DNA of 64,000 nucleotides, taken from contig JAFGSW010000101.1 of NCBI GenBank assembly GCA_016934415.1, forward strand, positions 204 to 64,203. Direction: 5' to 3'. This document shows, piece after piece, positions 29,413-52,239 of this stretch. Under the pieces are notes generated by a model. That model was not told the origin of the DNA. It ran no database searches and saw only the letters and a program-made list of their open reading frames with translations. The stretch's first letter is position 1, and every line of letters starts with the position of its first letter. Position numbers and translations under genes: made by a program. This DNA is from Spirochaetales bacterium. GTDB lineage: Bacteria; Spirochaetota; Spirochaetia; SZUA-6; RPPD01.

Positions 29413-31779
29413 CTATTTCGTCACCCGCACGCTCACCACCCGGCTCTCCACGTGCGCGTGCGGGAAGCGGGCCTGGAAGGAGTGCGTGCCCTCGGCCAGC
29501 TTCCAGCGCGTCTCGTAGGGGTAGGGAACGCGCTCGTACTCCTTGCCGTCCACGTACCAGACGACCTCGGGCACGAAGGGCTCGACCTCGGCGCGGAGGG
29601 CGATGGACTGGAAGGTACGGGGGAGGTCGGGGTCGATGAGGAAGCGCGCGCCGGGCTGGGGGTGGACGAGCGCGATGGCGGCGCGGCCGGACGCCGCCGC
29701 CGCTTCGACGGGCGGCTTGCCGAATCCCTGCTTGTCCGCCCAGGCGGCGTACTCCGGGCCGAGTACGGTGAAGAGCCGGCTTTCGACGCGGCCCGGGGGC
29801 GTCGACTCGGAGGCGATCGCGCCTGAGAGCCTGTCCACCGGGAAGCGCACGTGCACGCGGCAGAGGTCGTGCGGCTCGGTGCCGTCCCTGAAATACTCGA
29901 CGAACTTGTCGGGGCAATCGGCGTTGGCCGGCTTGCCGGAGAGGGAGCAGATCGTCACCGGCACCGTGCCCGTCGGGAGCGGGAAGGGGGCGGCGTTCAG
30001 GCCCCGTCGTTCCGCGGGGTGAAGCGCGTCCATGATGTCGTGCAGGAGCACGGCGACGAAGCTTCCGGAAATGCGGTTCATGGGCGCGTTCCGGGGGTGG
30101 CCCATCCACACGCCGACGATGGAGGAGCGCGAAAAGCCGACCGCCCAGGCGTCGCGGTATCCCTGGGACGTGCCGGTCTTCACCGCCACCGGGAAATTGT
30201 ACTCGAGCGGCGAAAGGCGCGGAAAGGAGGGGAGGCGCGACTCGGCGTCGGAGAGAAAGAGGGTGACCTCGCGCGCCGCGTACTCGGAGAAGATCCGGCG
30301 CGGGCGGACCGCATGATCGCCCGCCTCGTCGTTTTGAAACCACTTCAGGTGGAATTCCATTCCGTCGTTCGCCAGCATGCCGTAGGCCGCCACCAGGTCC
30401 TCGAGCGTCACGTAGAGCCCGCCGATGGGAAGACCGTAGCCGTACCAGCCGGCCGGGCGGCTGCCGTCGGCGAGGCCGCAGGCGCGGTACATGTCGAAGG
30501 CGCGCTCCAGGCCCACGCCTTCGAGCACCCGCAGGGTGGGCGTGTTGCGGCTGTTGGCCAGGGCGCGCCTGAAGAGCATGGGACCGAGGAACTCCTCGTC
30601 GAAGTTGCCGGCGGAAAACTCGCCTTCGGGCCCGACGATGGAGAAGGGCAGGTCGGCCAGGATCGAGCCCGGCGAGAAGCGGCCGGAGTCGAGCCCGAGC
30701 GCGTAGAGGAAGGGCTTCACCGTGCTCCCTGATGAGCGCGGGGTGCGCGCGTAGTTGATCGAGCCGGCCGCGGCCTTGGAGTCCCGGAAATATTCCTCGG
30801 AGCCGATATAGGCGAGGACCGCGCCCGTCTTGCGGTCGGCGACGACGGCCGCCATGTTGCCCGCGCCCAAGGCGCGGTAGGAAGCCACGGCGTTTTGGGT
30901 GAAGGCCTGTAGGCGCTTCTGGAGGTCGAGGTCGAGGGTGGTGCGGAGCGGCCTTGAGAGCCCGGCCGGCGGGCGCTTCGCGTACTCCTCCAGGCAGCGG
31001 AAGATGTAGTGGTAGGTGTTGTCCGGCCGCCTCTCGCGATAGCGGAAGTTCATGCCGGAGAGCTGGCGCAGGGTCATCTCGTAGTCGTCCCGGGAGAGCT
31101 TCCCCGCGCGGAGAAGCTCGGTGAGGACGAGGCGGGCGCGCGCCAGCGCGCGCTGGAAGCCCCAGTACTTGAAGAGGCTCAAGTTGGTCGGCGACTGGGG
31201 CAGGGCGGCCAGGAGCGCGGCCTCGGCCCAGCTCACGTCCTGGACGGGCTTGCCGAAATAGCGGCGGGCGGCGTAGGCGAAGCCGTACACCTGGTTTCCC
31301 TGCGGCGCGATCTTCAGGTACTGGCGGAGCACCCCCTCGCGGCCGTGGCGCGCGACGAGCCAGTAGGCGACCGCCGTCTCGTCCAGCTTGGCGAGGAGGG
31401 TGCGCGGGTGCCTGAGCTGCATGCGCGCCACCTGCATGGCGATGGTGCTCGCCCCCTGCTTTTGGTCATGGCTGGAATTGTAGACGAGGGCCCGACCGAT
31501 CGCGCGCAGGTCCACGCCCGGGTGGTTCCAAAACCGTTTGTCCTCGATGGCGAGGACGCACTCGCGCACGCGCTCCGGCACCGGGTCGGGCACGTCCCAG
31601 AACCCGAGCCGCGCGTACTCGTTCTCTCCCTCGCTCAAGAACGCGCCGGAGCGGTCCTCGAGGAGGGGAGTGGCCGGGTCGCTCGAGAGCTCCGCCTTGA
31701 AGAAGGCCTGGGCCATGAAGACGAGGAAGGCGAAGAGGAGGGTGGCGGCCGTGATCGCCGCCGCGTGCCGCGGCTTCAC
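29413..31779 (-). CDS. pbpC: Penicillin-binding protein 1C (bifunctional transglycosylase/transpeptidase)
   Basis: Transglycosylase motifs EDKRFWNHPGVD and GASTIAMQ. Transpeptidase motifs SGSTVKP (SxxK) and KTGTS. PBP1C-type C-terminal domain. Start taken as GTG 31779, before the TM helix. The ORF is open to 32004, but that extension runs through repeat DNA. Confidence 0.9.
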   Translation of the reverse strand: MKPRHAAAITAATLLFAFLVFMAQAFFKAELSSDPATPLLEDRSGAFLSEGENEYARLGFWDVPDPVPERVRECVLAIEDKRFWNHPGVDLRAIGRALVYNSSHDQKQGASTIAMQVARMQLRHPRTLLAKLDETAVAYWLVARHGREGVLRQYLKIAPQGNQVYGFAYAARRYFGKPVQDVSWAEAALLAALPQSPTNLSLFKYWGFQRALARARLVLTELLRAGKLSRDDYEMTLRQLSGMNFRYRERRPDNTYHYIFRCLEEYAKRPPAGLSRPLRTTLDLDLQKRLQAFTQNAVASYRALGAGNMAAVVADRKTGAVLAYIGSEEYFRDSKAAAGSINYARTPRSSGSTVKPFLYALGLDSGRFSPGSILADLPFSIVGPEGEFSAGNFDEEFLGPMLFRRALANSRNTPTLRVLEGVGLERAFDMYRACGLADGSRPAGWYGYGLPIGGLYVTLEDLVAAYGMLANDGMEFHLKWFQNDEAGDHAVRPRRIFSEYAAREVTLFLSDAESRLPSFPRLSPLEYNFPVAVKTGTSQGYRDAWAVGFSRSSIVGVWMGHPRNAPMNRISGSFVAVLLHDIMDALHPAERRGLNAAPFPLPTGTVPVTICSLSGKPANADCPDKFVEYFRDGTEPHDLCRVHVRFPVDRLSGAIASESTPPGRVESRLFTVLGPEYAAWADKQGFGKPPVEAAAASGRAAIALVHPQPGARFLIDPDLPRTFQSIALRAEVEPFVPEVVWYVDGKEYERVPYPYETRWKLAEGTHSFQARFPHAHVESRVVSVRVTK

Positions 31780-31810
31780 TTGTGTATGGCCTTGAAGAAC
31801 ACCACGAAGG

Positions 31811-31846
31811 ACACCCCTCGGCTTCGCTCGGGGCAGGCTCCGAACA
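31811..31846 (+). repeat. S-repeat (ACACCCCTCG..GCTCGGGGCAGGCTCCGAACA), copy 1
   Basis: Near-identical to the copies at 52061 and 53577. Inverted partner at 32151. Confidence 0.75.
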
Positions 31847-32000
31847 TGAAGGTGGGAGGAAGAAGGAGACGAGTAATGCTTTGCTTGCCGTTTCACCGTG
31901 TGCCGCGGCTTCTCTTGTGTGCGGCCTCTCAACAAACTGCCAAGAACACGCAGGATGGAAGAAGAAGGAGAAGAAGTATTATGACGAGAGCGGCGTGTTT

Positions 32001-32123
32001 TCATAGTACGAAATGATGAATACCGTTCTTGAGTTGTGTGCTTTCAAGTAATACGGGCCTCAGTTCCTTCTGTGCCTCGCGAGTGCATCCGATTACTTGA
32101 TTCAATAACTTATCAAATTCCAT
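32001..32123 (-). pseudogene. Truncated GxxExxY-family (PD-(D/E)XK-like) gene remnant
   Basis: The 40-codon ORF MEFDKLLNQVIGCTREAQKELRPVLLESTQ... matches only the N-terminus of GxxExxY proteins (..IIG.A.EVH.ELGPGLLES.Y). AT-rich. Flanked by inverted S-repeats. Confidence 0.5.
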
Positions 32124-32150
32124 TATTCCTTTATCCCTCTTCTTCGTATC

Positions 32151-32181
32151 CGGAGCCTGCCCCGAGCGTAGCCGAGGGGTG
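32151..32181 (-). repeat. S-repeat, copy 2 (inverted)
   Basis: CGGAGCCTGCCCCGAGCGTAGCCGAGGGGTG is the reverse complement of the S consensus. Confidence 0.75.
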
Positions 32182-32214
32182 CTCTCCGTTCTCTCCGTGT
32201 GCTCTGTGTCCTCC

Positions 32215-35200
32215 CTATTTAGGCCCCTCGACGATTTCAATCCTCGTGCCGGCCGACCGCCCGTACACCTTCAAATCGTACATGAGCTCGGCGCGGGCGC
32301 CGGGGTGGGTATAGCTACCGGAGAAGCTGGCGCGGGTGCGGAAGTAGAAGTCGTAGGTGCCCTTGGGAAGGGTGTCGTAATAGAACGTCACCGAATCGTC
32401 GGCATAGAGGGCGTAGGAGGGGCGGCGGGTGATTCCGCCCGCGGGCGCGGCGTCCTTGGAGCTCGTGGCGAGGTTGGGGTTCATGGGCTCGAAGCCGGCC
32501 GCGAAGGGCACCACCACCGCCACGAAGTTGCGGTCGGCGGGGTTGACCACGCGGACGTGCTCTTCGATCACGGTCTCGGTCTTGTAGGTCTGCTTTTCGC
32601 CCGATTTCGCCGGCCGGCGGTCGACCACCTTCTTGTCCGGCCCGTACTCGACGAGCTCGCGCTCGACCACGAAGCCCTTGTTTTCGGAGGGCAGCCGGTC
32701 GGCGGTGACGTCGGGCACGTATTCGATCGTGAGCCAGAGCCACGGCGTTTTGTTTTTGTCGCCGGAGACGAGTTTGACCAAGGCCGGCCGGTCCGTTTCA
32801 AGCTCGACGAAAGAAACGCTTTTCCCCCCGGTGTCGAGCGTGACGCGTGTGCCGCCCGCGGTGATCTCGAAGACGTGGGAGCGTCCCGGCGCGGCGGAGG
32901 ACTCGAGGAGCGAGGAGACGGCGAGGAGCGCGGACACGTTGTCGCACGTGTTCCCCCAGCCTGAATCGTCGGCGCGGGAGAGGAGGTCGTCGATCATGAG
33001 ACGGACGCGCGCGCTCTCGGGGTCGCTCGCCTGCAGGGCGCGGATCACCTGGGCGTTGGTGCGGACCCGGGAGGAGAGGACGAGGCCGCCCCAGGCCATG
33101 TCGCCGTACTGGAGGCCGGCGAACATCTCCTTCTTGTCCTTGAGCTTGAAGACCGTTTTCGACCAGACCGCGTCGAGCAGATCCTTCACCTGTTTCGCGT
33201 CGCCCTTTTTATTGGCGAGGAAGAGGGAGAGGATTTTGGCCTGGGAGTACAGGTCCTGGTTCCGGGCGCCCACCAGGAGATCGTAGGCGTACTGGTCGTC
33301 GAAGCGCCCGGCCGCGGTGAGGGAGGACATCGATTCGACCCGCTCGCGGAAAGAGTAGCCGGAAATGAAATAATCGTAGTCGGAGCGCAGGGCGTCTTTC
33401 AGGGCCTGCAGGGGCCGGGAGAGGAGCTTGTCCGGCACGTCGTAGCCGGCCTTCTTCGCCAAAGTCAGGAACTCGACCACGTAGGCGGTGAGGGACACGT
33501 ACCCGTCGGAGCCGGGCCAGTACGAATACAGCCCCTGCGGGGTGAGCGCGCTCTCGAGATAGGCGAGAAGCTCCTTGAAGACCGGGCCGGGCACCGTGTA
33601 CGTGTCCTTGAGCCCCAGCTTGCCGAGCGTCTCTTTCAGGGCGAGCGCCGGGTAGAGCTTGCTCACCCGCTGCTCGGTGCAGCCGTGCGGGTAGTCGGCG
33701 AGGAAGCGCATGGCGGCGAGGAGCTTCACCGCCTCCGGCTCGTAGGTCGCGACGACGGTGACTTTCATCGTGCCCGGCCGCGGTTTGTAATCAGGCGCGG
33801 GCGGGGAAACCGGCGCGCTCCCGTCCGCGCGCACGAAGGCGTCCTTGCGCAGGGTCTGCGTGTCGAGCCGGACGGGGAGCTTGAGCTCGAAGCCGTCCCC
33901 GGCCTTGTCGCTCGAGCGCTCGACCGCCATGCGTACGGCCGCGGTATCCCCGGGCGTGAGGCTTTCGGGCGCGAGGAAGTCGAAGTAGATCCGTTCGGCG
34001 GCGTTCTTTTTCCATTGCAGGGGGCGTGAGTCGCGGACGGCGCCGCCCTTGAGCTTCAGGCCCTCGACTTCCACGGCCGCGGTGCCCGGTCCGCCGGAGC
34101 CTTCCACGATGCGCCCGATGCCGCCGGCTCTGAACTCGTCGCCCGGCCGCACGAAGCGCGGGAGGGCCGTCTGGATGATGACCGGCAGATGGATGGAGAC
34201 GACCGAGCCCGCCGTGCCGAACTTGTCGTAGTCGGCGGCGGCGACGCAGCGCACGCTGAAATCGGTGAGGTTGTCCGGCAGATCGATCGTGATCTCGGCC
34301 AGGCCGTTCTTCACCGGGACGGCCGGGTTGATGTAGGGCACGGTCTGGAAATTGCGGCGCACGGTGGTCTTCTTGAAGAGCTCCAGGGCCGCCTCGTCGC
34401 GGGAGGCCGACTCGCTCCTCATTTTACCGGCCGCTTCGCCGTCGTCGCCGCCGGGAATCTCCTCGATCGGCAGGTTGCCCACCACCTCATTGCGGGTCTC
34501 GTGGACGCGCAGGGTGGAGGAGACGGGGTCGATGAACGCGTCGAGCGGGCGCAGGGGACGTTCCTGGCCGAGCGAGAGGACGGCCCGGTCCACGAGCCAG
34601 AGCGAGGCCGTGCCGTCGACCGGCGCGCCCCGCCAGTCCTTGACGATGATTTTCATTTTGAGTTGCTTGCCGGGGAGACTCGTCTTCTCGTGATCGAGAG
34701 ACACTTTCAGCCGGTTGCGCACCGAATCGACCTTCACCCGGGCGGTGGCGGCCATGGCGATCGGCCGGCCGCGGTCGACGCGGGAGCCTGAGTCGAAGCT
34801 CGAGAGGGTCCCGGTGCCGGGGAGCCGTCCCCGGAGGAGCAGGGCGTGGACGGGCACGCCGGGCACCATGTCCTCGCAGACGGTGAAGGTGAAGAGCCCC
34901 TGGCCGCCGCGCACGTCGGTCCAGTGATACTCGTTCTTGTCCGGCCCCTCGACGACGACGAGGGCTCGCGCGTCCTGGAAGGGCGATTTTAAAAGCAGGG
35001 TCACCCTGTCGCCCGGCGCGTAGCTCTCCCTGTCGAACGACGTCTCGAAGACTCCTGCGTACGACTTTTCCCAGCTCACCGGCTCTTTTCCGGCGAGATA
35101 CAGATCGGACTGCACCTTCTGCAGGCGGCCGAGCGAGTCCTTGGCGAGCGCCTCCACCACGTACACGCCGGCGGCGCCGGCGTCGAGCTCGATAGCGAGC

Positions 35201-38058
35201 GGCTCGGCGGCCGACCGGTAGCTCTTCTCGAAGACCTTCTTGTCGACCACGTCGGTGTGGTATTTGACCTCGCCGGTGGTGAAGTCGGTCTCGCTCAGGT
35301 ACGAGTGCCATTCGCGGTGGTAGAGCCGCACCGTGAACGGCTTGCCCGCGAGGGGTTTTTCGTCGAAGCCGATGACGACCACCCGTGTCGGAATCGTCTT
35401 CGCATCCTTGATGAAGCGATCCACCTTGAGGCCGATCGCGAAGGCGGGAACGGCGACGACCCGCTTGACCGCGGTCACGGTCTGCAGGTCGGCGCCCTTG
35501 ACCGTGGCTTCCACCACGAACACGCGGGGCGCGCCCGCGTTCTCGGCGGCCGGGTTCAGCGTCAGGCGGGCCGAGCCCTCGGCGTCGGTCACCGCGTGCA
35601 CGACGCTCGCCCCCCCGCTCTCATAGTCCCGCCCGCCGGAGAAGGCCTCGTCGGAGGAGAACGTGAAGCCCGGCAGGCCGGACGGGCGCACCGAGTAGGG
35701 ATACTTGGTGATTTCCCAGGTCACGGCCTGGCCCGCGACGCGTCCGCCCGCGTAATAGTCGGCGGTGAGAACGATTTCAAATTGGCGGTCGAGGGGCACG
35801 CGGTCCGGCCCCGAGAGCGCGACCTCGAAGGTGGGCACGCGGTAGGCTTCCTTCTTGAAGGGGACGCTCGCAAGTGTGCTCCCCGCTTTCACGTCGATGA
35901 GGGAGGCGGTGTAGTCGCCGGTGGGGATGTCCTTCCGGTCGAACTTGACGGAAAATCCCTGGTTCGGCCCGAGGGCGACGGGATACGTCCATTGCTTGCC
36001 GCCCGGGCCGTAGACGACGAGCTTGCGCTCGCGGGAGGCGTCGTCGGGCTTGATCACGCCCTGCTGCCGGAGCCGGACGTAGCCCATGACGTACACCGGC
36101 TCCTCCGGCCGGTAGAGCGGGCGCTCGGTGAACAGGTAGGCGCGGCGGCTCGGGGAGAGGCGCGCGGTCACGGGATCGGAGTTGAGGAAGGAGAGCCAGC
36201 GCGATCCCTCGTCCGACCAGTGGTTGTTCGAATAGACGGGCGGCGGATTGGCCGGGTCGAAGACGACTTTGTCGTCGCCCGACGACACGATGATGCGCCG
36301 TATCGTTTCCTCGATATCTTCGCGGTGGACGTAGCGGAAAAAACCCCGGGCGTCCGTCGTCCCGGAGACCACCGGGACCCAATCGCGGCTCTTGCCCTTG
36401 CGGCGCTCGCCTTCCACGCTGATGCGGGCGCCCGCCACGGGCCGGCCGGTCTTAAGCGAGGTGACGACGAAGACGACCTCGTTTTCCTCCTCCACCGTGG
36501 AGAGGGAGAGGTCGGTCACGACGAGGCGGACGTAGGTGCGGCGGCTCCCCGGTCCGAGCAGGCGGCAGCCCACGAGGTAGGTGCCGGGCGCGTCTTTTCC
36601 CGAGACGCGCTCGAGGATCGGGCCGAGGTCGAACCCGAAGCGGCTCGCGCCGGACGTTTTCCTGATGGGCAGATCGATGAGCCGGGAGTCGTGCGGCGTG
36701 CCGAGGAGCCGGATCTGGGACCGGAGGTTTTCACCGTACGGCGGCTCCTCGCCGGGCATGGGCGGACGCGAGTCCTCGTCCACCGCCACGGGAGACGCGG
36801 GGAAGGGCCAGAAGTTGCGGTTCTCCGGATCGATTTTATACACGCGCAGGTCGGCGCGCGTCAAGCCGCGGCCTTCCATGGGGAAAAGTCGGGGGCCGAA
36901 GCGCTCGACCACGGCCTGGCCGCTCTTCCACTGCAGGTAGGCGTCGAGCTGGCGGTAATAAAAATAGAAGGAGGTCTCTCCGAAGGGCATGAGTTTCCGG
37001 CCCGACGCGCTCTTGAGGGGAAAATGCGAGAGCGTAAGCTTGTAGGGCGTGTTCTTGTCCGCGCCGAACATGAGGACGAGGCGGTCGCCCTCGACCGAGA
37101 AGCGGAAGTCCCTGACCGCGGGCTCGAAGCGCGCGAGGCGCTTCACCGCCTCCGCGCCGAGCGGGGCGAGCGCTTCGCTGAAGCGCAGGGTGACCGGGCT
37201 CCGGCCGTCGCCGCAGTCGACCGCCTGCTCGAGCGAGTAGACGCTCCCGTTGGCGGCCACGGGCAGTTCGGCGTAGCCGGCGGACATGCCGATGAGGCGG
37301 AATTCCCGCTTGGTGGCGAAGGTGTACGAGGCGAGCGAGCCCTCGAGCTCCCCGTCGAGGGAAAGGCGCAGGGAAAGGGTGAGGAACCGGCCGTAGGGCA
37401 CCGGGGTCCTGAGCTCGAGCCGGTACCGGTTGGAGGTGCCGGCGTCGGTCTTGTCGAGCAGCTTCACGGTGAAGTCGTCGGCGGTGAGCCGGACGGCGGC
37501 CCCTTCGCCCACGCCGGGCAGCGCCTTGATCTCGAACGAGATCATGGAGGCGAGGTCGGCGGGCGGGATCTCGTTCGGGAAGGTGAGGGTGAACGACGAG
37601 ATCGGCTCGAGGTCGCGGGACCCGGACGACGGGGAAAGCGAGGTCGGCGGCACCATGAGGGTGAAAAGGGTGCGGCTCGCGCCGCGCGCCTTCACCGTGA
37701 AGTTCTTGAGCGCGGGCCAGGCCACGGCCGGCAGGAACTGGACGGTCCGGGCGTCGACGAAGCGGTACTCGCCCGGCACGGCCGGGCTCACCGAGAGGAG
37801 GTCGCCGGGGTTGTCGAGCGGTCCGCCCGCGGCGGGGCCGACCGAACGGGCGTAAAACACCGTAATCGGGTCGTAGCCGCGCAGGAATGTCTCGGGGATG
37901 ATGACCACGCCTTTGGAGCGTAAAGTCTCCTCGAGGCCCGAGCTCACGGGGCTGAATCCCCTGCCGCCCTTCTCGGGCGCGCCCTCGGCGAAGAGCGGCA
38001 TGGAGGCCGCGAGCAGCGCGGCGGCCAGTGCAACGGCGATCGCTGATTTTTTCATCAT
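32215..38058 (-). CDS. Bacterial alpha-2-macroglobulin, thioester-containing (YfhM/ECAM type)
   Basis: 1947 aa. Signal peptide without a lipobox Cys. Thioester motif YPHGCTEQ (GCTEQ codons at 33670-33684). Strong RBS GGAGGAAGG. ATGA overlap with the upstream gene. Confidence 0.95.
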   Translation of the reverse strand: MMKKSAIAVALAAALLAASMPLFAEGAPEKGGRGFSPVSSGLEETLRSKGVVIIPETFLRGYDPITVFYARSVGPAAGGPLDNPGDLLSVSPAVPGEYRFVDARTVQFLPAVAWPALKNFTVKARGASRTLFTLMVPPTSLSPSSGSRDLEPISSFTLTFPNEIPPADLASMISFEIKALPGVGEGAAVRLTADDFTVKLLDKTDAGTSNRYRLELRTPVPYGRFLTLSLRLSLDGELEGSLASYTFATKREFRLIGMSAGYAELPVAANGSVYSLEQAVDCGDGRSPVTLRFSEALAPLGAEAVKRLARFEPAVRDFRFSVEGDRLVLMFGADKNTPYKLTLSHFPLKSASGRKLMPFGETSFYFYYRQLDAYLQWKSGQAVVERFGPRLFPMEGRGLTRADLRVYKIDPENRNFWPFPASPVAVDEDSRPPMPGEEPPYGENLRSQIRLLGTPHDSRLIDLPIRKTSGASRFGFDLGPILERVSGKDAPGTYLVGCRLLGPGSRRTYVRLVVTDLSLSTVEEENEVVFVVTSLKTGRPVAGARISVEGERRKGKSRDWVPVVSGTTDARGFFRYVHREDIEETIRRIIVSSGDDKVVFDPANPPPVYSNNHWSDEGSRWLSFLNSDPVTARLSPSRRAYLFTERPLYRPEEPVYVMGYVRLRQQGVIKPDDASRERKLVVYGPGGKQWTYPVALGPNQGFSVKFDRKDIPTGDYTASLIDVKAGSTLASVPFKKEAYRVPTFEVALSGPDRVPLDRQFEIVLTADYYAGGRVAGQAVTWEITKYPYSVRPSGLPGFTFSSDEAFSGGRDYESGGASVVHAVTDAEGSARLTLNPAAENAGAPRVFVVEATVKGADLQTVTAVKRVVAVPAFAIGLKVDRFIKDAKTIPTRVVVIGFDEKPLAGKPFTVRLYHREWHSYLSETDFTTGEVKYHTDVVDKKVFEKSYRSAAEPLAIELDAGAAGVYVVEALAKDSLGRLQKVQSDLYLAGKEPVSWEKSYAGVFETSFDRESYAPGDRVTLLLKSPFQDARALVVVEGPDKNEYHWTDVRGGQGLFTFTVCEDMVPGVPVHALLLRGRLPGTGTLSSFDSGSRVDRGRPIAMAATARVKVDSVRNRLKVSLDHEKTSLPGKQLKMKIIVKDWRGAPVDGTASLWLVDRAVLSLGQERPLRPLDAFIDPVSSTLRVHETRNEVVGNLPIEEIPGGDDGEAAGKMRSESASRDEAALELFKKTTVRRNFQTVPYINPAVPVKNGLAEITIDLPDNLTDFSVRCVAAADYDKFGTAGSVVSIHLPVIIQTALPRFVRPGDEFRAGGIGRIVEGSGGPGTAAVEVEGLKLKGGAVRDSRPLQWKKNAAERIYFDFLAPESLTPGDTAAVRMAVERSSDKAGDGFELKLPVRLDTQTLRKDAFVRADGSAPVSPPAPDYKPRPGTMKVTVVATYEPEAVKLLAAMRFLADYPHGCTEQRVSKLYPALALKETLGKLGLKDTYTVPGPVFKELLAYLESALTPQGLYSYWPGSDGYVSLTAYVVEFLTLAKKAGYDVPDKLLSRPLQALKDALRSDYDYFISGYSFRERVESMSSLTAAGRFDDQYAYDLLVGARNQDLYSQAKILSLFLANKKGDAKQVKDLLDAVWSKTVFKLKDKKEMFAGLQYGDMAWGGLVLSSRVRTNAQVIRALQASDPESARVRLMIDDLLSRADDSGWGNTCDNVSALLAVSSLLESSAAPGRSHVFEITAGGTRVTLDTGGKSVSFVELETDRPALVKLVSGDKNKTPWLWLTIEYVPDVTADRLPSENKGFVVERELVEYGPDKKVVDRRPAKSGEKQTYKTETVIEEHVRVVNPADRNFVAVVVPFAAGFEPMNPNLATSSKDAAPAGGITRRPSYALYADDSVTFYYDTLPKGTYDFYFRTRASFSGSYTHPGARAELMYDLKVYGRSAGTRIEIVEGPK

Positions 38059-41000
38059 TCACCTTCCTCCGGGTATTCGGTTTGTCCCTGATTTGTATAT
38101 TGATTGACGATGTCCTGCGGCACGCCCGCGCCGCTGCCGTCCTGCCCGTAGACGAGCGGGCGGTAGCGGACTGGCAATCCATCGCCGCCCGAGGCCGGAT
38201 CGTCGCCGTAGACGGCCAGGTAGTAGGTCCCCCTCGCGAGCGTGCGGAAGAGGAGCGTGCCGGCGCCGAGGAGCCTCGAGCCCGCGTCATAAAGCTCGGC
38301 GCGGAGACGGTCGGCCTCGGCGGACAGGCCGACGCCGACCCCGCCCGGTTCCGTTACCTCGAACGCGAAGACCTGCGCCTCGCCCTTGCCGATGAAGAAA
38401 TCCTTCTCGTCGTTTTTACCCGACAAGGCGACGGGTCGGACGCGGGCGAGCGAGAGCGTGCCGCGGAGCGACGAGTCCTTGATGGGACGGACGTGGATTT
38501 CGTAATCGCCCTTCGCCAGACGTTGGACGATCGGGGACCGCGGCGCTTCCAGGCCCGAGCGTACGGCGAGCACACGGCCGTTGGCGGAGCCGCCCGAAAG
38601 GGCAATCACCCCGGGGCTGGTCGTCGTGATCACGGCGAAAGCGTCCGCGTCCATCCTGAAGGAGTAGAGCGCTTCCCCGCCCGAAAGCCGTTCCGTTCCG
38701 GAAATCGGCTTCGCCTTCAGGCCCCGGCTGCGGCCGGCCAGATCTTCGGCCTCTTGGCCGGCCCGGCTGAAGAAGACGGAAATCCAGCCTTTCCCGTGCG
38801 TGATCTCGAGGTCGCCGGGCTCGGCGGGAAGCACGGCGACGTCGGCCGGCCCTTCCTTCCGGACCGGTCGGGAGATCCTGCCGTCGCGCCCGAGGAGCCT
38901 GGCCCCGAAACCGTCGCCGGCGAGACAGAGCGATTCCTTTTCGTGTCCGGCCGGTATGGACACCGTCAGGCGGCCTTCGCCCGGGAAGACGGTTTCGATC
39001 CCCGCCGCGTCCAGAATCGGGGAGGGGGCGTCGCTTGAGTTTGAAACGATCGCCTTGACGGCCGCGTCGGCCGCGCCGTAATTGGCGATCACGAGCGTGC
39101 CGCCGGTCACGGCGAAGGTGACGTCGCGGTTGGCAGCGTCGGCCGCGGCCATCGTCAGGGGCTCGCCGCTCCGCCACACCGCGGCGGCGCAGCCGCGCGA
39201 GAGGAGGACCCGGAGAACCTGCGCGCCCGCGTCGAGATCGAGCCTGAGGGCGCGGCCCGGGTCGAGGAGCCAGGTCCGCGTCTCGCCCTTGCCGAGACGC
39301 CCAGAGTCTGCGGGCAGGCGGACGAGGCGGACGTTCACGCGCGCGTCGGCCCGGCCGGCGGCGACCGGCTCCGGGTTCCAGAGCCTCGCCTGGTACGCTC
39401 CCGAGGGCGGGAAGAGCACGAAGGTTTTATTGTCCGACTCGTCCATGCCCCTGAAATCGTACTTGTCCTTTTTATAGCGGCCGCGCGGCGCGAGCGAGAG
39501 GCCGCAGGGCTTGTCCTCGGTTTCCGCGGTCAGGAGGAAGGCGTCGCTCCGGCCGGGGTCCGCGAGAAAGGAGTGCGGGATCGATCCGACGAAGACGGTC
39601 CGGCTTTCGCCCGCGGCGATCGAGGCCGGCTCGAAGCGCACGCCCGGGACCGTCCCGCCCGCGGCCGAGACGAGATAGCCGCGGCCGCCCGGCCCGGTCG
39701 CGATCCAGGCGCCGGGGGACAGGCACGGCGATTCGGGGCCGGTTGAATAGAGAACGCGATCGGCCTTGTCCGCGATCCTGTAGCTCAAACCGTGGCGGTT
39801 GTCGAGGGCCAGGAATTCCGGGCAATCGAAGGCGCGCGGAGAATCGGACAGCTCGACCGATCGGGGGACGGTGTAGGCGACCGTCGCCTTCACGGGCTGC
39901 GGCCGGTCTTCGGACTGCCGGATCTGAAGCGTGTAGGCCCGGCCCTTGTACAGGGGCACCGCCAGGAAACCCTCGCCCGCGGCGAGGAGCTCGGTCTCAC
40001 GGTACAGGCCGAACTTCACGGCCCGGCCTTTCTCGGCCCTGACCGAGAGCACGCCTTCCGCGTCGGGGCGGACCGGGATCTTCAGGATTTCCCGGCCCAA
40101 TGACTGGTCGACGGTGAAGGGAAGCTTCCGCTCCCCGAGCGGATGTTCCGCGTTGACGGCCATGGCGACCGTCGACCCGCCCGTGACGGAGCCGGCCGGC
40201 TCGATGCGAAGCAGGTAGCGGCCGGCGCCGAGTCGCTGGGTGATGCGGAAGTTCCAGTCGTTTTCCGCGTCGTCGTTCTCTGCGATGAGATGGTCGCCCG
40301 TCTCGTCCCAGAGCGAGGCCTTGAAATCCCCCTCGCCCGAGCTTGAAAAATCGTAGACGCCGTCGCCGCCGGTGCTGACGACGAAGGAACCCGCGCCGTA
40401 TCCGAGCTCGTAGACGAGCCCCGAGGCGAGCATGGCGGTGGAAACGCCGACCGTGTATTGGAACAGGTTGCGTTCCTCCTGCGGGCTCACCGCGAGCTCG
40501 TAGGCGCCGGCCGGAAGGTCGAACGACTGCGCCGGGCCGCCGGCCAGGCGCACGGGCTCGGCCAGGGACTGCCCTTTCAGCTCGCCCTGCATGCCCGTTG
40601 AGAGAGAGGCGGCGACCGAGAGCGGCGCGGGCAGGACGAAGGCGAACACGTCCGGCGCGCGCCCGGGCGTCTCCTTCCAGACTCGGCTCCGCCGGTGGTT
40701 GAGCTCCAGGTCGAACCGCTTTGCATTCTCGTCCTCGGCCGCGGGGCGGATGATCCGGGCGAAGGTCGTGAGGCGGCGGGTGAGGTAAGGAACCGGGAAC
40801 GAGAAATAGACGTACGAGCCGCGATCGAGCTCGATATCGGTCCCCCGGTTGCCGACGGCGATCGGAAAGCCTTCGGCGTCCTCAAGGCGGAAGGGGAAAT
40901 TGACGCCCAGACCGAGCGTGGTGATCGCGTAGCGCCCCTGGATCGCGGCGGACAACGCGTAGCGCAGGCCGACGTCCGATTCGACCGTCCGGCGGCTTAT

Positions 41001-43244
41001 CGCGTCGGGCTCGAGCTCTCCGAGATCGGTGAACTCGGTTTTCCTCAATACGACGCCGGCCCGGCCGCGGCTTTGGCCGCGCGCGCTCACCGCCACCAGG
41101 TAATCGCCCGGCTTCAGGTAGGTCATGATGAGGGCGTTCCGGCCCTCGCCGTTCTCCCCGGCCTGAACGAGCGAGGGGACGAGCGGCGTACGCACGGAGA
41201 GGCCCATCGAAAGGCGGCCCGTCGTCTCGATCCGGTAGAGGGACGGCACGGCGACGCGCAGAAGAACATTGCGGGTCTGGCCGCGCTCGAAATCGGCGTA
41301 ATACGGGCGGCCCTCGGTGAAGACCGGAAAGGTGTCTTCGAAGGCTTTCAGGACCGGCTTGGGGAATCGCTGCAGGGAAAGGGCGTCCGCGGCGTAGAGG
41401 GTGATGAGGTCGGCGCGCTTGGCTTGATTGGCGAGGGTGAAGGTGTACGTGCCGGGGCGTAGGGGTGATCCGTTTTCGGCCTTTTTCCCGGACACGGTGA
41501 GCGAATACTTTTCCCCTTCGACGGAGAGAACCGAATTCTTCTCCACCCGCACGCCGACGGTCACGTTCTCACCGGGGGCGAGCGTCGCGGAGAGGGGGAC
41601 CTCCAATGAAAGCGGCAGCTCGCGCACGTCGACGCCGACGGCCGCGTCGGAGCGGGAGTTGAGCGTGAGACTCGCGCTTGTTTTTGCCGGCACCTCGACC
41701 GCAGGCCAGGCGACCGCGGATTGCGGCTCGGGCGGGTCGAGCTTCAGCAGGTCGGCCGGCTTTCGGCTGCCGTCCCTGTACACGGCGAAGTGCAGAATGC
41801 CGAGCGAGGCCGGTTGAAGGTCGAGGGAATAGAATCCCCGCACGAGCTCGACGCTCTTGTCCGGGGTCTTCCACTCGGCTTCGACCCCCCTCGTGAACCG
41901 GTTCTCAAGCAGGGTGAAGCGGTAGCGGGCCTTGCCCCCCGCGGTCGCGCTCTCCGCGACCCGGTAGGCGCCCGGCGTCTCGATGAAAAGGTACACGGAG
42001 TTGTTTCCGAGGAGATTGACCTTGCGGATGAAGGGCGAATTCGCGGAAACCCGGATCGCCCCCTCTTTCAGGAAGGAAACCTTCCGGTTGGAGCTCGTGT
42101 AGATGAGCGGGGTGAGGTCGATGAGGTCCCGGGCGGCGTGCCCGGAGACGGTTGACACCCAGAAGGTTTTTTTCGCCTTCCTGTCGTAGGGCAGGGAACC
42201 GGCGCCGCGTTTGAAGAAACTCACCTCCAAAAGGTCGCCGGGCCCGGCCTCGACCACGAGCCATTTTCTTTCCGACGAGCTCCGGGAATAGAAGGAGCAC
42301 CACGGCTCCTTCGATTTCTTGGTGATCTCCGCGCTCGACTGCAGCCGGTAGCGGCTGCGGTCCTTGCCGTAGTACCCGGCGCCGATCCGTGTCTGCTCCA
42401 GGGCGTCGCGCACGCACTCGACGTAGTCGGCGCTCCCGGCGATGAGGTAGGCGTCGCGGCCGAACGGCGAGATGCGCAGCTTCTGCGCGCCGTTCGAGCC
42501 CAGGAACCGCGCCCCGCGGCGCAGGAGGAGTTTTGTTTCCCCGCTTTCGTCGGTCCAGGCCCGCGGCTTCCCGCCGGCGCAGACCAGGAGGTAGTGGCCG
42601 GCTTCGAGGGTGCTGTGGAATTCGGCGAAGAGCGCGGGCCTTCCCTGTTCCGGCTCGCGCTCTTCGTAATCGGGCCTGACCGCGGTGAGCCACTGGCCGT
42701 TTTGCCAGAGGGCGCAGGATTGGAGGGCACGGCCCATCACCTCCAGGCGGAGCTCGTCGCGCCGGGGAAGGTAGATCCAGTAGGAACGGGTGGCGAGGTC
42801 GCCGAGGGTGGTTTCGACGAAATCGCCGTCGTAGAGAAAGGGGTAATCGGCGATCGTGGCGGCGGCATTGGCTTCGGTGAAGGGGAGCACCGCAAGCCCG
42901 GCCGGGGCCTTCGCGTCGCGGTCGGGGAACAGGTTGACGCGGTATTCGCCCGGGTCGAGGAGAAGGTCGATCCGCCCGTCGCGTTCGCCCGGCGCCCCCG
43001 AGCGCGCTCCGATGACGCCGGCCATCCGGTCGACGAGCTCAAGGGCCGTGCCCGTCTTGCTTGTCGTCCGCAGGCTGTAGTAGCCGCGCTCCCGCACCGT
43101 GAGGAGGGTGCGCTGGAGGTCCGAGGGCGCGAACGCGGTCTTCGCGAGCGACGCCGGGTCGGCCGCGAAGAGCGAGGCCGCGATCGGGAAATAAAGGGCG
43201 ATGCACAGGATCGATCTGAGATTGCCGCCGCCGGGTCTTTTCAT
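38055..43244 (-). CDS. Giant secreted protein of repeated PPC-like beta-sandwich modules, function unknown
   Basis: 1729 aa. RBS GAAGGGGGA. Signal peptide ...ASLFAADP. At least a dozen G-x-Y-x-[LVF] strand signatures (PGEYRV, AGHYLL, PGDYLV, AGRYLL, RGTYYL...). One module, ENDDAENDWNFRITQRLGAGRYLLRIEP, closely resembles pre-peptidase C-terminal domains. Confidence 0.85.
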   Translation of the reverse strand: MKRPGGGNLRSILCIALYFPIAASLFAADPASLAKTAFAPSDLQRTLLTVRERGYYSLRTTSKTGTALELVDRMAGVIGARSGAPGERDGRIDLLLDPGEYRVNLFPDRDAKAPAGLAVLPFTEANAAATIADYPFLYDGDFVETTLGDLATRSYWIYLPRRDELRLEVMGRALQSCALWQNGQWLTAVRPDYEEREPEQGRPALFAEFHSTLEAGHYLLVCAGGKPRAWTDESGETKLLLRRGARFLGSNGAQKLRISPFGRDAYLIAGSADYVECVRDALEQTRIGAGYYGKDRSRYRLQSSAEITKKSKEPWCSFYSRSSSERKWLVVEAGPGDLLEVSFFKRGAGSLPYDRKAKKTFWVSTVSGHAARDLIDLTPLIYTSSNRKVSFLKEGAIRVSANSPFIRKVNLLGNNSVYLFIETPGAYRVAESATAGGKARYRFTLLENRFTRGVEAEWKTPDKSVELVRGFYSLDLQPASLGILHFAVYRDGSRKPADLLKLDPPEPQSAVAWPAVEVPAKTSASLTLNSRSDAAVGVDVRELPLSLEVPLSATLAPGENVTVGVRVEKNSVLSVEGEKYSLTVSGKKAENGSPLRPGTYTFTLANQAKRADLITLYAADALSLQRFPKPVLKAFEDTFPVFTEGRPYYADFERGQTRNVLLRVAVPSLYRIETTGRLSMGLSVRTPLVPSLVQAGENGEGRNALIMTYLKPGDYLVAVSARGQSRGRAGVVLRKTEFTDLGELEPDAISRRTVESDVGLRYALSAAIQGRYAITTLGLGVNFPFRLEDAEGFPIAVGNRGTDIELDRGSYVYFSFPVPYLTRRLTTFARIIRPAAEDENAKRFDLELNHRRSRVWKETPGRAPDVFAFVLPAPLSVAASLSTGMQGELKGQSLAEPVRLAGGPAQSFDLPAGAYELAVSPQEERNLFQYTVGVSTAMLASGLVYELGYGAGSFVVSTGGDGVYDFSSSGEGDFKASLWDETGDHLIAENDDAENDWNFRITQRLGAGRYLLRIEPAGSVTGGSTVAMAVNAEHPLGERKLPFTVDQSLGREILKIPVRPDAEGVLSVRAEKGRAVKFGLYRETELLAAGEGFLAVPLYKGRAYTLQIRQSEDRPQPVKATVAYTVPRSVELSDSPRAFDCPEFLALDNRHGLSYRIADKADRVLYSTGPESPCLSPGAWIATGPGGRGYLVSAAGGTVPGVRFEPASIAAGESRTVFVGSIPHSFLADPGRSDAFLLTAETEDKPCGLSLAPRGRYKKDKYDFRGMDESDNKTFVLFPPSGAYQARLWNPEPVAAGRADARVNVRLVRLPADSGRLGKGETRTWLLDPGRALRLDLDAGAQVLRVLLSRGCAAAVWRSGEPLTMAAADAANRDVTFAVTGGTLVIANYGAADAAVKAIVSNSSDAPSPILDAAGIETVFPGEGRLTVSIPAGHEKESLCLAGDGFGARLLGRDGRISRPVRKEGPADVAVLPAEPGDLEITHGKGWISVFFSRAGQEAEDLAGRSRGLKAKPISGTERLSGGEALYSFRMDADAFAVITTTSPGVIALSGGSANGRVLAVRSGLEAPRSPIVQRLAKGDYEIHVRPIKDSSLRGTLSLARVRPVALSGKNDEKDFFIGKGEAQVFAFEVTEPGGVGVGLSAEADRLRAELYDAGSRLLGAGTLLFRTLARGTYYLAVYGDDPASGGDGLPVRYRPLVYGQDGSGAGVPQDIVNQYTNQGQTEYPEEGE

Positions 43245-43345
43245 TGAGTCCCCCTTCTTTTCGTATTGTTTTCATTATAACCCCCATGCCCCGCTTTCGC
43301 CAGTAAAGGAGAGAGCGAATTGACGCTTTTATACCGCGGAAATTG

Positions 43346-43379
43346 ATTGTAGAGACGCACGGCCGTGCGTCTCTACAAT
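43346..43379. repeat. P-palindrome repeat, copy 3 (34-bp perfect palindrome)
   Basis: ATTGTAGAGACGCACGGCCGTGCGTCTCTACAAT, in the divergent promoter region. Confidence 0.85.
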
Positions 43380-43457
43380 ACAATCAACAACAGGCTGGTG
43401 TGAAACCGGTTTTCAGGATAATGTGAATCTATTATAAACAATAACGGAGACCGACCG

Positions 43458-44567
43458 ATGAAAGACATCCCCCGTCACTCAGGCTCAACCGACGTCACCC
43501 CGGAAGAGGCGGGATTTCATTCGCCCCGGCTGGACGCGCTCGACTCGTTCTTCGCCCGGCTCATCGAAAAGAAGCGATTGCAGGCCGCGGGCTTCCTCCT
43601 GGCCCGGCGCGGTAAAATCTTCGCTTCGCGGACCCTGGGAAGCCTCGCGCCGGACGATCCGGGGCGATCTTTTCTCCCGGATTCGCTTCTGGCCGTCGGC
43701 CCGATCACGCAGGCGGTCACGGCGGTCGCGCTCTTCACGCTGATGGAGGCGGGACGGCTCACCCTGGAACAACCGGTGAGCCGCATGATCAAGGAATTCG
43801 ACACGGACCAACATCGGAAAATCGCCGTCTCCCATCTTCTGAACCATACCGCCGGGCTCGCCCCGGACGCCGGTTTTTTTCACGAGCCCAACCCGGCGCG
43901 GGCGCCCCGCTTTCGGAACATGAGGGATTTCCTGCGCCATGCCCTCCGCGGGCCGCTTCTCGCCCCGCCCGGCGAGCGCTGGGCTCCGTGCGCGAACGGC
44001 TTCGTCGTGCTGGGCGAAATCATCGAACGCGTTTCCGGCGTGACGTACGAGGACTACGTCCGGCGGGCCGTGCTGGAGCCGCTGGGGATGGGCGATACCC
44101 ATTTCACCGTTCCCGAGGAGAAGCGGGACCGGCTGTGCCGCACGGGGAAAAGAATGAGCTCGCGCGGAAAGGGGAAAAACATTCAGGCCGCCGATTCGGG
44201 ACTGCATTCGACGCTTCCGGACCTTTTCAAGTTCGGCCGAATGATGCTCGGCAACGGCCGGCTGGGCGATGCGCGCGTTATCAGTCGGAAATCGGTGGAG
44301 AAGATGACCTCGAACCGGCTCCGCCACCTGTCGGCGGAAGAGGGTGCGATGCGGCTCGACCCCAAAAAATACGGCTTCGGCTGGTCGATCCTATCGCTGA
44401 GCATCGTCTCACCGTCCGCCTTCGGTCTCGAGGCGCCCGGCCGGGCTTCCCTGCTGATCGACCCCGAGGAGGATCTCGCGGCCGTCTTTTTCACCCCGGC
44501 CGCGGGTCCGCCGGCGCCGGAGGCCCTCACCGTTCCCCCGGCCGTCGTCTGGTCCGGACTCGAGTAA
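43458..44567 (+). CDS. Beta-lactamase-family serine hydrolase paralogue with degenerate active site
   Basis: Aligns along its full length with the next gene, but SxxK is replaced by P-I-T-Q (43701-43712) and the motif-2 Tyr is Pro (WAPCANGF vs WSYSSLGF). Confidence 0.8.
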   Translation: MKDIPRHSGSTDVTPEEAGFHSPRLDALDSFFARLIEKKRLQAAGFLLARRGKIFASRTLGSLAPDDPGRSFLPDSLLAVGPITQAVTAVALFTLMEAGRLTLEQPVSRMIKEFDTDQHRKIAVSHLLNHTAGLAPDAGFFHEPNPARAPRFRNMRDFLRHALRGPLLAPPGERWAPCANGFVVLGEIIERVSGVTYEDYVRRAVLEPLGMGDTHFTVPEEKRDRLCRTGKRMSSRGKGKNIQAADSGLHSTLPDLFKFGRMMLGNGRLGDARVISRKSVEKMTSNRLRHLSAEEGAMRLDPKKYGFGWSILSLSIVSPSAFGLEAPGRASLLIDPEEDLAAVFFTPAAGPPAPEALTVPPAVVWSGLE

Positions 44568-44579
44568 AGGAGCAGGCCT

Positions 44580-45689
44580 GTGATCACCGAAGGCAAAACC
44601 GACATCACCTGCCGCGAGGCGCGCTACAATCCGGCGACCGTCGCCGCCCTGGACGATTTCTTCACGCGGCTCATTGCGGAGAAAAAGATCCAGGCCGCCT
44701 GCTATCTCCTGGCGCGGGGCAACGGGATCTTCGCGCATAAGTTCATGGGCGGTCTCCGTTTCGACAAGCCCGACCTGCCCTTCCTGCCCGGCTCGCTGCG
44801 CAAGATCGCGTCCATCACCAAGGTGTTTACCGCGCTCGCCGTCATGCGGCTTGCGGAAGACGGGCTGCTCTACCTGGAAAAGCCCGTCGCGGACTTCATC
44901 CCCGAGTTCGACACGCCCCTGCACCGGGGTATCACGGTCTGGCACCTCCTCACCCACAGCGCGGGACTGAAGGCCGATCCCGGATATTTCCTCGAGCCAT
45001 ACCCGCTGTGGGCGGACATGAAGTGCCTGGACGATCTCATTCATTTCGCCGTGGAGGGCCCGCTCCAGTCCCGGCCCGGGGCGACCTGGTCGTACAGCTC
45101 GCTCGGCTTCGTTCTGCTTTCCGTAATTATCGCCCGGGCGGGCGGCATGCCGTACACCGAGTACGTGGAACGGGAAATCCTCAAGCCTTCGCGCCTGAAC
45201 GACACGCACTTCCGCGTGCCCGAAGACAAGATCGACCGGGTCTGCTTCACGCTCGAGTATGAGTTGAAGGAGTTCGATAGGATGCAGAGCGGGAAGACGT
45301 TCTTCCTGGGCGGGAGCGGACTCACCTCGACGCCCTATGACCTGTTCCGCCTCAGCCGGCTCCTGCTTCAGAAAGGCACCCTCGACGGAGTCCGCGTGTT
45401 GGGGAGAAAGACGATCGAGGCCCTGGTGCGCGACCAGTTCAACCCGGCCACGACCGCCTATTGCTGGGGCATGAACCTCAAGCCGATGGAATACGGCGCC
45501 GGCGTGAGCATCTCGCTGGGAGGGATCATGAGCCGGTTCGTCTACAACCACGAGGGCTACGGCCGCTGCACCTTCTTCGCCGACCCGGAGGAGGATTTCA
45601 CCGCCGTCTTCTTCGTCCCCACCGCCACCCACTGGCTGCCCGAGATCATCGAGAACCCGCGCTACATCATCTGGTCCGGGATCGAGTGA
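44580..45689 (+). CDS. Beta-lactamase-family serine hydrolase (class C / esterase-like)
   Basis: GTG start. Intact SxxK (ASITKVF) and the Tyr motif (WSYSSLGF). Confidence 0.85.
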   Translation: MITEGKTDITCREARYNPATVAALDDFFTRLIAEKKIQAACYLLARGNGIFAHKFMGGLRFDKPDLPFLPGSLRKIASITKVFTALAVMRLAEDGLLYLEKPVADFIPEFDTPLHRGITVWHLLTHSAGLKADPGYFLEPYPLWADMKCLDDLIHFAVEGPLQSRPGATWSYSSLGFVLLSVIIARAGGMPYTEYVEREILKPSRLNDTHFRVPEDKIDRVCFTLEYELKEFDRMQSGKTFFLGGSGLTSTPYDLFRLSRLLLQKGTLDGVRVLGRKTIEALVRDQFNPATTAYCWGMNLKPMEYGAGVSISLGGIMSRFVYNHEGYGRCTFFADPEEDFTAVFFVPTATHWLPEIIENPRYIIWSGIE

Positions 45690-52054: not shown

Positions 52055-52239
52055 AAGAGGACACCCCTCGACTGCGCTCGGGGCAGGCTCCGAACACGGA
52101 GAGAGGAGAAGAGTACGAAGAGGGAAGAAGAGGGAAGGGAAAAGAAAAGTTTAGGAAAAAAACTCCGTCCTCTTTCTTCGCTTTTTCCTTCTTTCTTTCT
52201 TCGTGTTCTTCGTCCTCTTCGTGGTCTTCGTGTCCTCTT
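52055..52239. repeat. Palindromic MITE-like element filling an intercistronic gap (contains S-repeat copy 3 at 52061-52096)
   Basis: 10-bp terminal inverted repeats AAGAGGACAC (52055-52064) and GTGTCCTCTT (52230-52239). The internal purine-rich arm is complementary to the pyrimidine-rich arm. Confidence 0.7.

Follow-up and report, generated by a model that had tools for sequence, protein, structure and literature searches.

We analyzed a stretch of 64,000 nucleotides (nt) from a Spirochaetales bacterium (contig JAFGSW010000101.1, positions 204 to 64,203), hereafter called the window, and concentrated on three intact open reading frames (ORFs) that lie co-directionally on its minus strand. In the order of the genes, they encode an exported protein of 1729 amino acids (aa), designated ORF1 (38055-43244), a long-form thioester-containing alpha-2-macroglobulin (A2M) of 1947 aa (32215-38058), and PbpC, a PBP1C-type class A penicillin-binding protein (PBP; 29413-31779). 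In the original prediction for this locus, the latter two genes had been described as the known YfhM-PbpC pair, to which a giant secreted repeat protein of possible anchoring, scaffolding or protease-capture function was added upstream. The coordinates, the sizes of the ORFs and the order of the three genes were confirmed, as were all other sequence details that could be checked.

The genes for ORF1 and A2M overlap. At the junction (38055-38070, minus strand), the sequence reads GGAGGAAGGTGAATGATG, and the ATG start codon of the A2M gene (38058-38056) is overlapped by the TGA stop codon of ORF1 (38057-38055). The 3'-end of ORF1 contains a Shine-Dalgarno (SD) motif, GGAGGAAGG, the GGAGG core of which is located 7 nt upstream of the A2M start. 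Both the ATGA overlap at 38055-38058 and the strong SD motif inside ORF1, as originally predicted, could thus be read directly in the sequence. A terminator scan revealed no terminator-like site at the junction, and fewer sites overall than in shuffled controls. Scans of the window against Rfam and for tRNAs yielded no matches.

The possibility that homologues of the 1729-aa protein are never linked to A2M genes elsewhere, which had been raised together with the prediction, was decisively contradicted by two neighbourhood surveys. The forward survey comprised 79 loci from one-genome-per-species contigs, obtained with a seven-sequence ORF1 alignment, and the contigs of three distant homologues. 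Counts were restricted to loci that were non-redundant and extended 600 nt or more beyond the ORF1 stop codon (n = 65). An A2M homologue was found immediately downstream of ORF1 and on the same strand in 64 of these 65 loci, and pbpC was the next gene after A2M in 53 of the 57 loci with enough sequence beyond A2M. For the reverse survey, 80 metagenome loci were fetched with the A2M alignment, and those with at least 1 kb of upstream sequence were counted (n = 72). ORF1 was present upstream of the long-form A2M in 67 of the 72 loci, a number that rose to 69 after a multi-query tblastn search, and pbpC followed A2M in 52 of 59 loci. More than 130 loci from at least eight phyla share this gene order, and the hosts named in the records include Spirochaetota, Acidobacteriota, Nitrospirota, Elusimicrobiota, Myxococcota, Desulfuromonadales, Chitinispirillaceae (Fibrobacterota-like), and Alpha- and Gammaproteobacteria. 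Clustering of all flanking ORFs of about 160 loci did not reveal a fourth conserved neighbour gene. The sole exception of the forward survey (L055, 9713-15016) was an ORF1 copy with an in-frame stop codon near position 12136 and no A2M gene downstream; judging from these features, it looks like a decaying orphan.

The overlapping, coupled arrangement that had been proposed for the window turned out to be a trait of the family. Stop and start codons of ORF1 and A2M overlap in 31 of 64 loci (24 with ATGA, six with a one-base overlap, and one with a GTG or TTG start codon), and permissive start picking raised this number to up to 36. The pairwise-distance matrices of the three proteins, calculated for 57 loci, were closely correlated (r = 0.978 for ORF1 and A2M, 0.957 for ORF1 and PbpC, and 0.965 for A2M and PbpC; Mantel p = 0.001). 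Together, ORF1, the long-form A2M and PBP1C represent one inherited and probably co-expressed unit. The operon link is firm, and an adjacency of ORF1 and A2M by chance is excluded.

The A2M of the window contains the Pfam domains bMG3, MG2, A2M_BRD, A2M and bMG10, all scoring above the cutoffs. The thioester motif GCTEQ, on which the original prediction had relied, is located at aa 1459-1463 (33670-33684, minus strand) in the context YPHGCTEQ, and residues C1460, E1462 and Q1463 are invariant in the A2M alignment (A5). The signal peptide, MMKKSAIAVALAAALLAASMPLFA, is followed by EG and is of the signal peptidase I (SPase-I) type. Because it does not contain a Cys, the protein has no lipobox and is not a lipoprotein, and thus the proposed difference from E. 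coli YfhM was also borne out. Lipobox-like strings were found in three dubious cases among 64 A2M homologues, the homologues otherwise having SPase-I signal peptides.

The relationship to the E. coli protein is distant. A BLASTP comparison of the window A2M with YfhM yielded 21% identity (E 8e-15), and the alignment started at residue 637, which corresponds to residue 385 of YfhM. The A2M family profile matched ECAM and Sa-A2M (5a42 and 4u48) with an E value of about 1e-38, covering profile positions of about 997-1921 and a second stretch. The N-terminal part of about 630 aa, which begins with the conserved mature motif VVPDRFLRRWDPVTIFF, has no detectable counterpart in ECAM. The lengths of the A2M homologues range from 1789 to 2082 aa, with a median of 1948 aa, and every ORF1-linked A2M has the long form. 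The CxEQ motif is retained in 125 of 132 long-form homologues. The remaining seven have lost the thioester Cys (L012, L025, L029, L054, L065, L095 and L130, with sequences such as YPYGTTEA, YPYRSTEN and YPYGGTEQ); five of them are still flanked by ORF1 and pbpC, and the contigs of the other two, L095 and L130, end too soon. This distribution suggests that the thioester was lost secondarily within the three-gene system. Judged by its sequence, the window A2M is a member of a distinct, deeply diverged, long-form soluble subfamily, and it is this subfamily that is linked to ORF1.

The prediction that the 1729-aa protein is secreted was supported by an N-terminal Sec-type signal peptide (aa 1-27, 43164-43244, minus strand). 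It has the sequence MKRPGGGNLRSILCIALYFPIAASLFA, is followed by AD, and is of the SPase-I type without a lipobox. The homologues have the same type of N-terminus, with cleavable signal peptides and neither a lipobox nor a transmembrane (TM) anchor. Neither a C-terminal sorting signal nor a catalytic motif was seen in ORF1. A word-indexed protein search yielded 38 full-length homologues of 1660-1920 aa, and 533 matches at E <= 1e-30 were obtained when 1.84 billion representatives (clusters at 50% identity) were searched exhaustively with phmmer. This large family is uncurated, and ORF1 can be regarded as a founder-type member. For ORF1 and 15 family members, no Pfam family was found at threshold; the sole curated match of ORF1 is a weak one to the NCBIfam model FDP_fam / DVUA0089 (aa 966-1024). 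The Pfam family PPC (PF04151) reached 16.4 bits, below its gathering score of 25.9 bits, and gave weak hits in six of the 15 members (best E value 5e-4). A comparison of the ORF1 profile with the PDB sequences did not reveal a solved relative and gave only a marginal match to a collagenase CBD (E of about 1).

The description of ORF1 as a repeat protein holds at the profile level. ORF1 does not contain tandem repeats at the DNA level, and the mutual homology of its domains became apparent when the profile was compared with itself using hhalign, a comparison of hidden Markov models that yielded off-diagonal E values down to 1e-16. The structure was modelled with AlphaFold2 in two overlapping halves, using alignments of 30 sequences. 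Both models are all-beta, with a mean predicted local distance difference test (pLDDT) of 86.3 and a predicted template modelling score (pTM) of 0.67 for aa 1-1150, and a pLDDT of 86.2 and a pTM of 0.76 for aa 1001-1729. A Foldseek search of the PDB did not yield a global match (template modelling score normalised to the query at most 0.17). Matches at the level of single domains had a probability of 1.0 and comprised neuropilin a1a2, the CUB domains of enteropeptidase, TMPRSS6 and PCPE-1, and ColG s3a-s3b; the best of them had E values down to 8e-10 and template modelling scores of up to 0.42 when normalised to the target. A jelly-roll fold resembling CUB and PPC domains is therefore found in the ORF1 models at the domain level only. 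These models predict that ORF1 is built as an array of beta-jelly-roll repeats, about 14 in number, which are diverged and CUB/PPC-like. The acidic clusters of these domains include the invariant residues D996-W997-N998.

Several family members contain additional domains. An N-terminal LprI/DUF1311 domain, which belongs to a lysozyme-inhibitor family, is present in six of 181 ORF1 members (P0029, P0032, P0033, P0085, P0126 and P0155). For one of these fusions the locus was checked (L167, 10001-15604), and the fused gene still precedes A2M and pbpC. In another member, P0061, SH3b (SH3_3) domains are inserted at aa 1456-1545, approximately. Bacterial SH3 domains often bind peptidoglycan. The LprI and SH3b fusions suggest that the ORF1 family belongs to periplasmic, peptidoglycan-related defence and has a role near the peptidoglycan. 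One homologue, P0022, carries the name TamB. This identity was rejected: the window ORF1 had no hit to a TamB family of Pfam or NCBIfam, and none of the 15 members, including P0022, had a TamB-family hit in Pfam. In addition, the signal peptide of ORF1 is cleavable, whereas TamB has an N-terminal membrane anchor, which also argues against TamB. Most likely, the name arose as an artefact of annotation.

The third gene product, PbpC, contains the Pfam domains Transgly (PF00912), Transpeptidase (PF00905) and BiPBP_C (PF06832), all above the cutoffs, and the motifs EDKRF, STVK, SRN and KTG were all found. An N-terminal TM segment, AAAITAATLLFAFLVFMAQAFF, could be read from the sequence. The protein thus has the features of the PBP1C class, i.e. 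a GT51 transglycosylase, a transpeptidase, BiPBP_C and an N-terminal TM anchor. The NCBIfam model TIGR02073 (PBP_1c) scored far better than any other model, at 455.8 bits, just below its cutoff of 494.2 bits. The mechanically defined ORF extends to an ATG at 32004 and has 863 codons. However, its first 75 codons run through an inverted-repeat-flanked element, and, therefore, the start codon of pbpC is probably the GTG at 31779, which immediately precedes the TM segment. Given this start codon, the true spacer between A2M and pbpC is probably 435 nt long.

The element itself is about 386 nt long (31804-32189), occupies the A2M-pbpC spacer and does not belong to the conserved module. Its inverted-repeat arms of 48 nt (31804-31851 and 32142-32189) are 85% complementary, and the 30-nt core occurs a third time in an unrelated intergenic spacer (52062-52091), where it has a similar spurious translation. 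The element resembles small repeated elements of the MITE or REP type and inflates the pbpC ORF by the 75 codons mentioned. A 40-codon ORF within it (32001-32123, minus strand) had no Pfam match; by eye, it bore a likeness to GxxExxY proteins, for which we make no claim. A hairpin at 31820-31805, a short distance upstream of where pbpC probably starts, was picked up by the terminator scan but was weak and not significant. In a close relative (L166, 84% identical), a scaffold gap of 100 Ns lies at the A2M-pbpC junction (L166 13509-13608), and an apparent A2M-PbpC fusion ORF of 2715 aa in this contig is an artefact of that gap. The gap probably reflects an assembly that was broken by the same repeat element.

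Upstream of ORF1, a divergent promoter spacer of 213 nt (43245-43457) contains the only sigma70-like sites of the region, which are consensus matches only. They are overlapped by a perfect palindrome of 34 nt (43346-43379), which consists of ATTGTAGAGACGCACGG followed by CCGTGCGTCTCTACAAT and may serve as an operator or form a hairpin that acts in both directions. Beyond the spacer, two tandem paralogues of the PF00144 beta-lactamase family (serine hydrolase or PBP-like) are encoded on the plus strand (43458-44567 and 44580-45689), divergently from the module. At the equivalent position, the related locus L166 contains one confirmed PF00144 gene and an adjoining gene of 366 aa. The pair is absent from distant loci and is thus a lineage-specific neighbour that may share a cell-wall theme with the module. 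A different neighbour was observed in Methylocystis bryophila (L001), the locus of which is devoid of pbpC: just upstream of the ORF1 homologue and on the opposite strand lies a gene of the metalloprotease inhibitor family PF02974, 'Inh' (9263-9649, minus strand).

Bacterial A2Ms have been divided into two types. Type I A2Ms have a thioester and a lipobox and, together with PBP1c, make up a unit of two genes; type II A2Ms are thioester-less and have their genes in an operon of six genes with multiple partners (PMC3735191, PMC5764988). The signal peptide of type II A2Ms does not contain the lipobox Cys (PMC3735191), and MagB stabilises and localises the A2M of the type II system (PMC5764988). 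The original prediction had assigned the multi-gene clusters described so far to the thioester-less class, in agreement with these reports. The window A2M shares with E. coli YfhM/ECAM-PbpC and Salmonella Sa-A2M, to both of which it is homologous, the CxEQ motif in the TED, the MG/bait/TED/MG10 domain set, periplasmic export, and pbpC immediately downstream. These are features of type I, but the N-terminal lipobox Cys that also defines this type (PMC3735191) is missing. ECAM comprises 1653 aa and is a lipoprotein, whereas the A2Ms of the window type have about 1950 aa, no lipobox, and an N-terminal third that remains unmatched. In addition, yfhM-pbpC of E. coli K-12 is a two-gene unit with a divergent sseA gene upstream, whereas in the window an overlapping partner gene for a 1729-aa protein is found. 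Therefore, the view of the locus as the YfhM-PbpC pair plus one gene stood with respect to the thioester and the pbpC linkage, but it had to be revised with respect to the A2M, which is a long-form protein of only 21% identity with an unmatched N-terminal region of about 630 aa. Like the magABCDEF operon of P. aeruginosa and the yfaS cluster of E. coli, the window encodes an A2M-family protein without a lipobox Cys together with an accessory periplasmic protein. However, the type II operons have no thioester, no link to pbpC, and several small or medium-sized partners with domains of unknown function (DUFs), whereas the window has one giant ORF1; a thioester-less A2M with DUF-type partners is not what is encoded there.

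Parallels for ORF1 itself are confined to parts of it. PCPE-1, neuropilin a1a2 and ColG s3a-s3b are the best structural matches of single predicted domains, but the lack of a global match and the scores below the Pfam thresholds set ORF1 apart from CUB and PPC arrays, and no known array is alike in its arrangement of about 14 domains or in its gene context. The insect thioester protein TEP1 is kept by a dedicated partner, LRIM1/APL1C. This system is similar in that a thioester protein has a non-enzymatic repeat protein as partner, but the similarity may be taken as an analogy only, as the partner consists of leucine-rich repeats and a coiled coil instead of a CUB/PPC-like array, and the system is eukaryotic and extracellular. 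In line with the original prediction, no prior description of a third partner for a thioester-class A2M was found in the searchable literature; an earlier passing mention by Budd et al. (2004) is conceivable. These authors reportedly gave the first description of the linkage between A2M and pbpC. Compared with types I and II, a thioester A2M system that is widespread, non-lipidated and made up of three components, among them a giant partner from an uncharacterised family, appears to be new.

With moderate confidence, we favour a reading in which the soluble, non-lipidated A2M has a dedicated accessory in the periplasm, ORF1, and both act with PBP1C in a variant of trap-and-repair. In this view, Sec exports ORF1, which like the A2M has no anchor and whose CUB/PPC-like beta-sandwich domains, about 14 in number, form an array without enzymatic activity. 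ORF1 and A2M would be synthesized from one mRNA and, in most cases, by translational coupling, which would result in a fixed ratio of the two proteins. ORF1 could then serve as a large binding platform near the peptidoglycan that either stabilises and positions A2M or brings targets to it, and PBP1C would be the membrane-anchored repair enzyme beside the A2M protease trap. Such a role would be comparable to those of MagB and the other Mag partners in type II systems (PMC5764988) and of LRIM1/APL1C for TEP1. A more specific version is put forward tentatively, and we would rather bet against it than for it: ORF1 and the long-form A2M may form a 1:1 heteromeric periplasmic trap, in which the CUB/PPC array docks onto the subfamily-specific N-terminal third of A2M and either completes the cage around captured proteases or gates the activation of bait region and thioester and tethers the trap to the peptidoglycan or PBP1C. 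Such a trap would add a third architectural class of bacterial macroglobulin systems, widespread among free-living diderms and not among host colonisers.

Several observations weigh against a dedicated accessory role. The link to ORF1 is independent of the thioester chemistry, because the Cys-less A2Ms have kept ORF1. Correlations between distance matrices as high as those reported above are expected of any genes that are inherited as one operon. Furthermore, ORF1 evolves fastest of the three proteins, with a median pairwise identity of 35% in the 57 loci, compared with 49% for A2M and 48% for PbpC, and this faster divergence is as compatible with a surface facing variable targets as with an obligate complex. 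Lastly, A2M can exist alone, as three rare loci (L102, L153 and L160) have an A2M gene without ORF1. The gene in L102 (9896-15793) encodes a genuine stand-alone long-form A2M, and its neighbours are unrelated (UvrA-like, QRPTase, heptosyltransferase). An ORF of 1278 aa upstream of it had been considered as a diverged ORF1, and it turned out to encode a UvrA/ABC-type protein instead.

The faster divergence of ORF1 is also what would be expected if it were a target-facing protein that forms an independent, parallel arm, i.e. a decoy or binder of other lytic factors such as lysozyme-like and peptidoglycan-degrading enzymes or toxins, which is co-regulated with A2M and PBP1C without binding to either of them. 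The LprI fusions in six of the 181 members and the one SH3b insertion would be in accordance with such a function, and CUB/PPC-like domains are generic protein-binding modules. However, the stop/start overlap is specifically with A2M and not with pbpC, and ORF1 is paired near-obligately with a single A2M subfamily; because of this tight overlap and pairing, a stoichiometric co-production of ORF1 and A2M is suggested. Moreover, ORF1 is essentially never found alone, and the reading frame of its only orphan copy, L055, is interrupted by a stop codon. We regard a parallel arm as unlikely, yet as the main rival explanation. An incidental adjacency, with ORF1 being a secreted adhesin or a surface protein that has no relation to the other two, has next to no probability, since overlapping genes and congruent phylogenies in more than 130 loci of at least eight phyla effectively refute it.

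It is quite improbable that the A2M is anchored to the membrane or envelope through ORF1, a role that had been envisaged in the original prediction. The A2M does lack the lipobox of E. coli YfhM, and MagB anchors the type II A2M in P. aeruginosa (PMC5764988). However, the signal peptides of ORF1 and its homologues are cleavable and of the SPase-I type, and these proteins lack a lipobox, a TM segment and a visible C-terminal sorting signal; direct anchoring is unlikely because ORF1 has no anchor of its own. The models of ORF1 are all-beta and globular. Anchoring could only be indirect, for example via peptidoglycan or PBP1C. A still less probable explanation makes ORF1 a highly diverged A2M paralogue without a thioester, which, as an array of MG domains, would form a hetero-oligomeric trap with A2M. 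Its size and its all-beta multidomain structure are A2M-like, and A2ML1, C5, A2M, CD109 and ECAM were among the Foldseek hits. However, these A2M-family hits had probabilities of 0.2-0.4 and template modelling scores of 0.05-0.08, whereas the hits with a probability of 1.0 were CUB/PPC jelly-rolls. Furthermore, no A2M-family Pfam domain was found at threshold (a single bMG6 hit with an E value of 0.12 occurred in one of 15 members), and the ORF1 model does not contain a helical TED-like domain.

In summary, the locus represents a large third arrangement beside types I and II, characterized by an A2M that bears a thioester, is non-lipidated and pbpC-linked, and has an obligate-looking giant partner. 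It is found in no fewer than 533 sequence clusters (50% identity) and in at least eight phyla, mostly in environmental bacteria, and this challenges the view of type I A2Ms as lone-acting, host-directed colonisation factors. ORF1 defines a large uncurated family with a confidently predicted fold, for which Methylocystis bryophila, Dongia sedimenti and Arhodomonas sp. are cultured carriers, and it is a concrete candidate for a protein that positions or regulates a soluble A2M in the periplasm.

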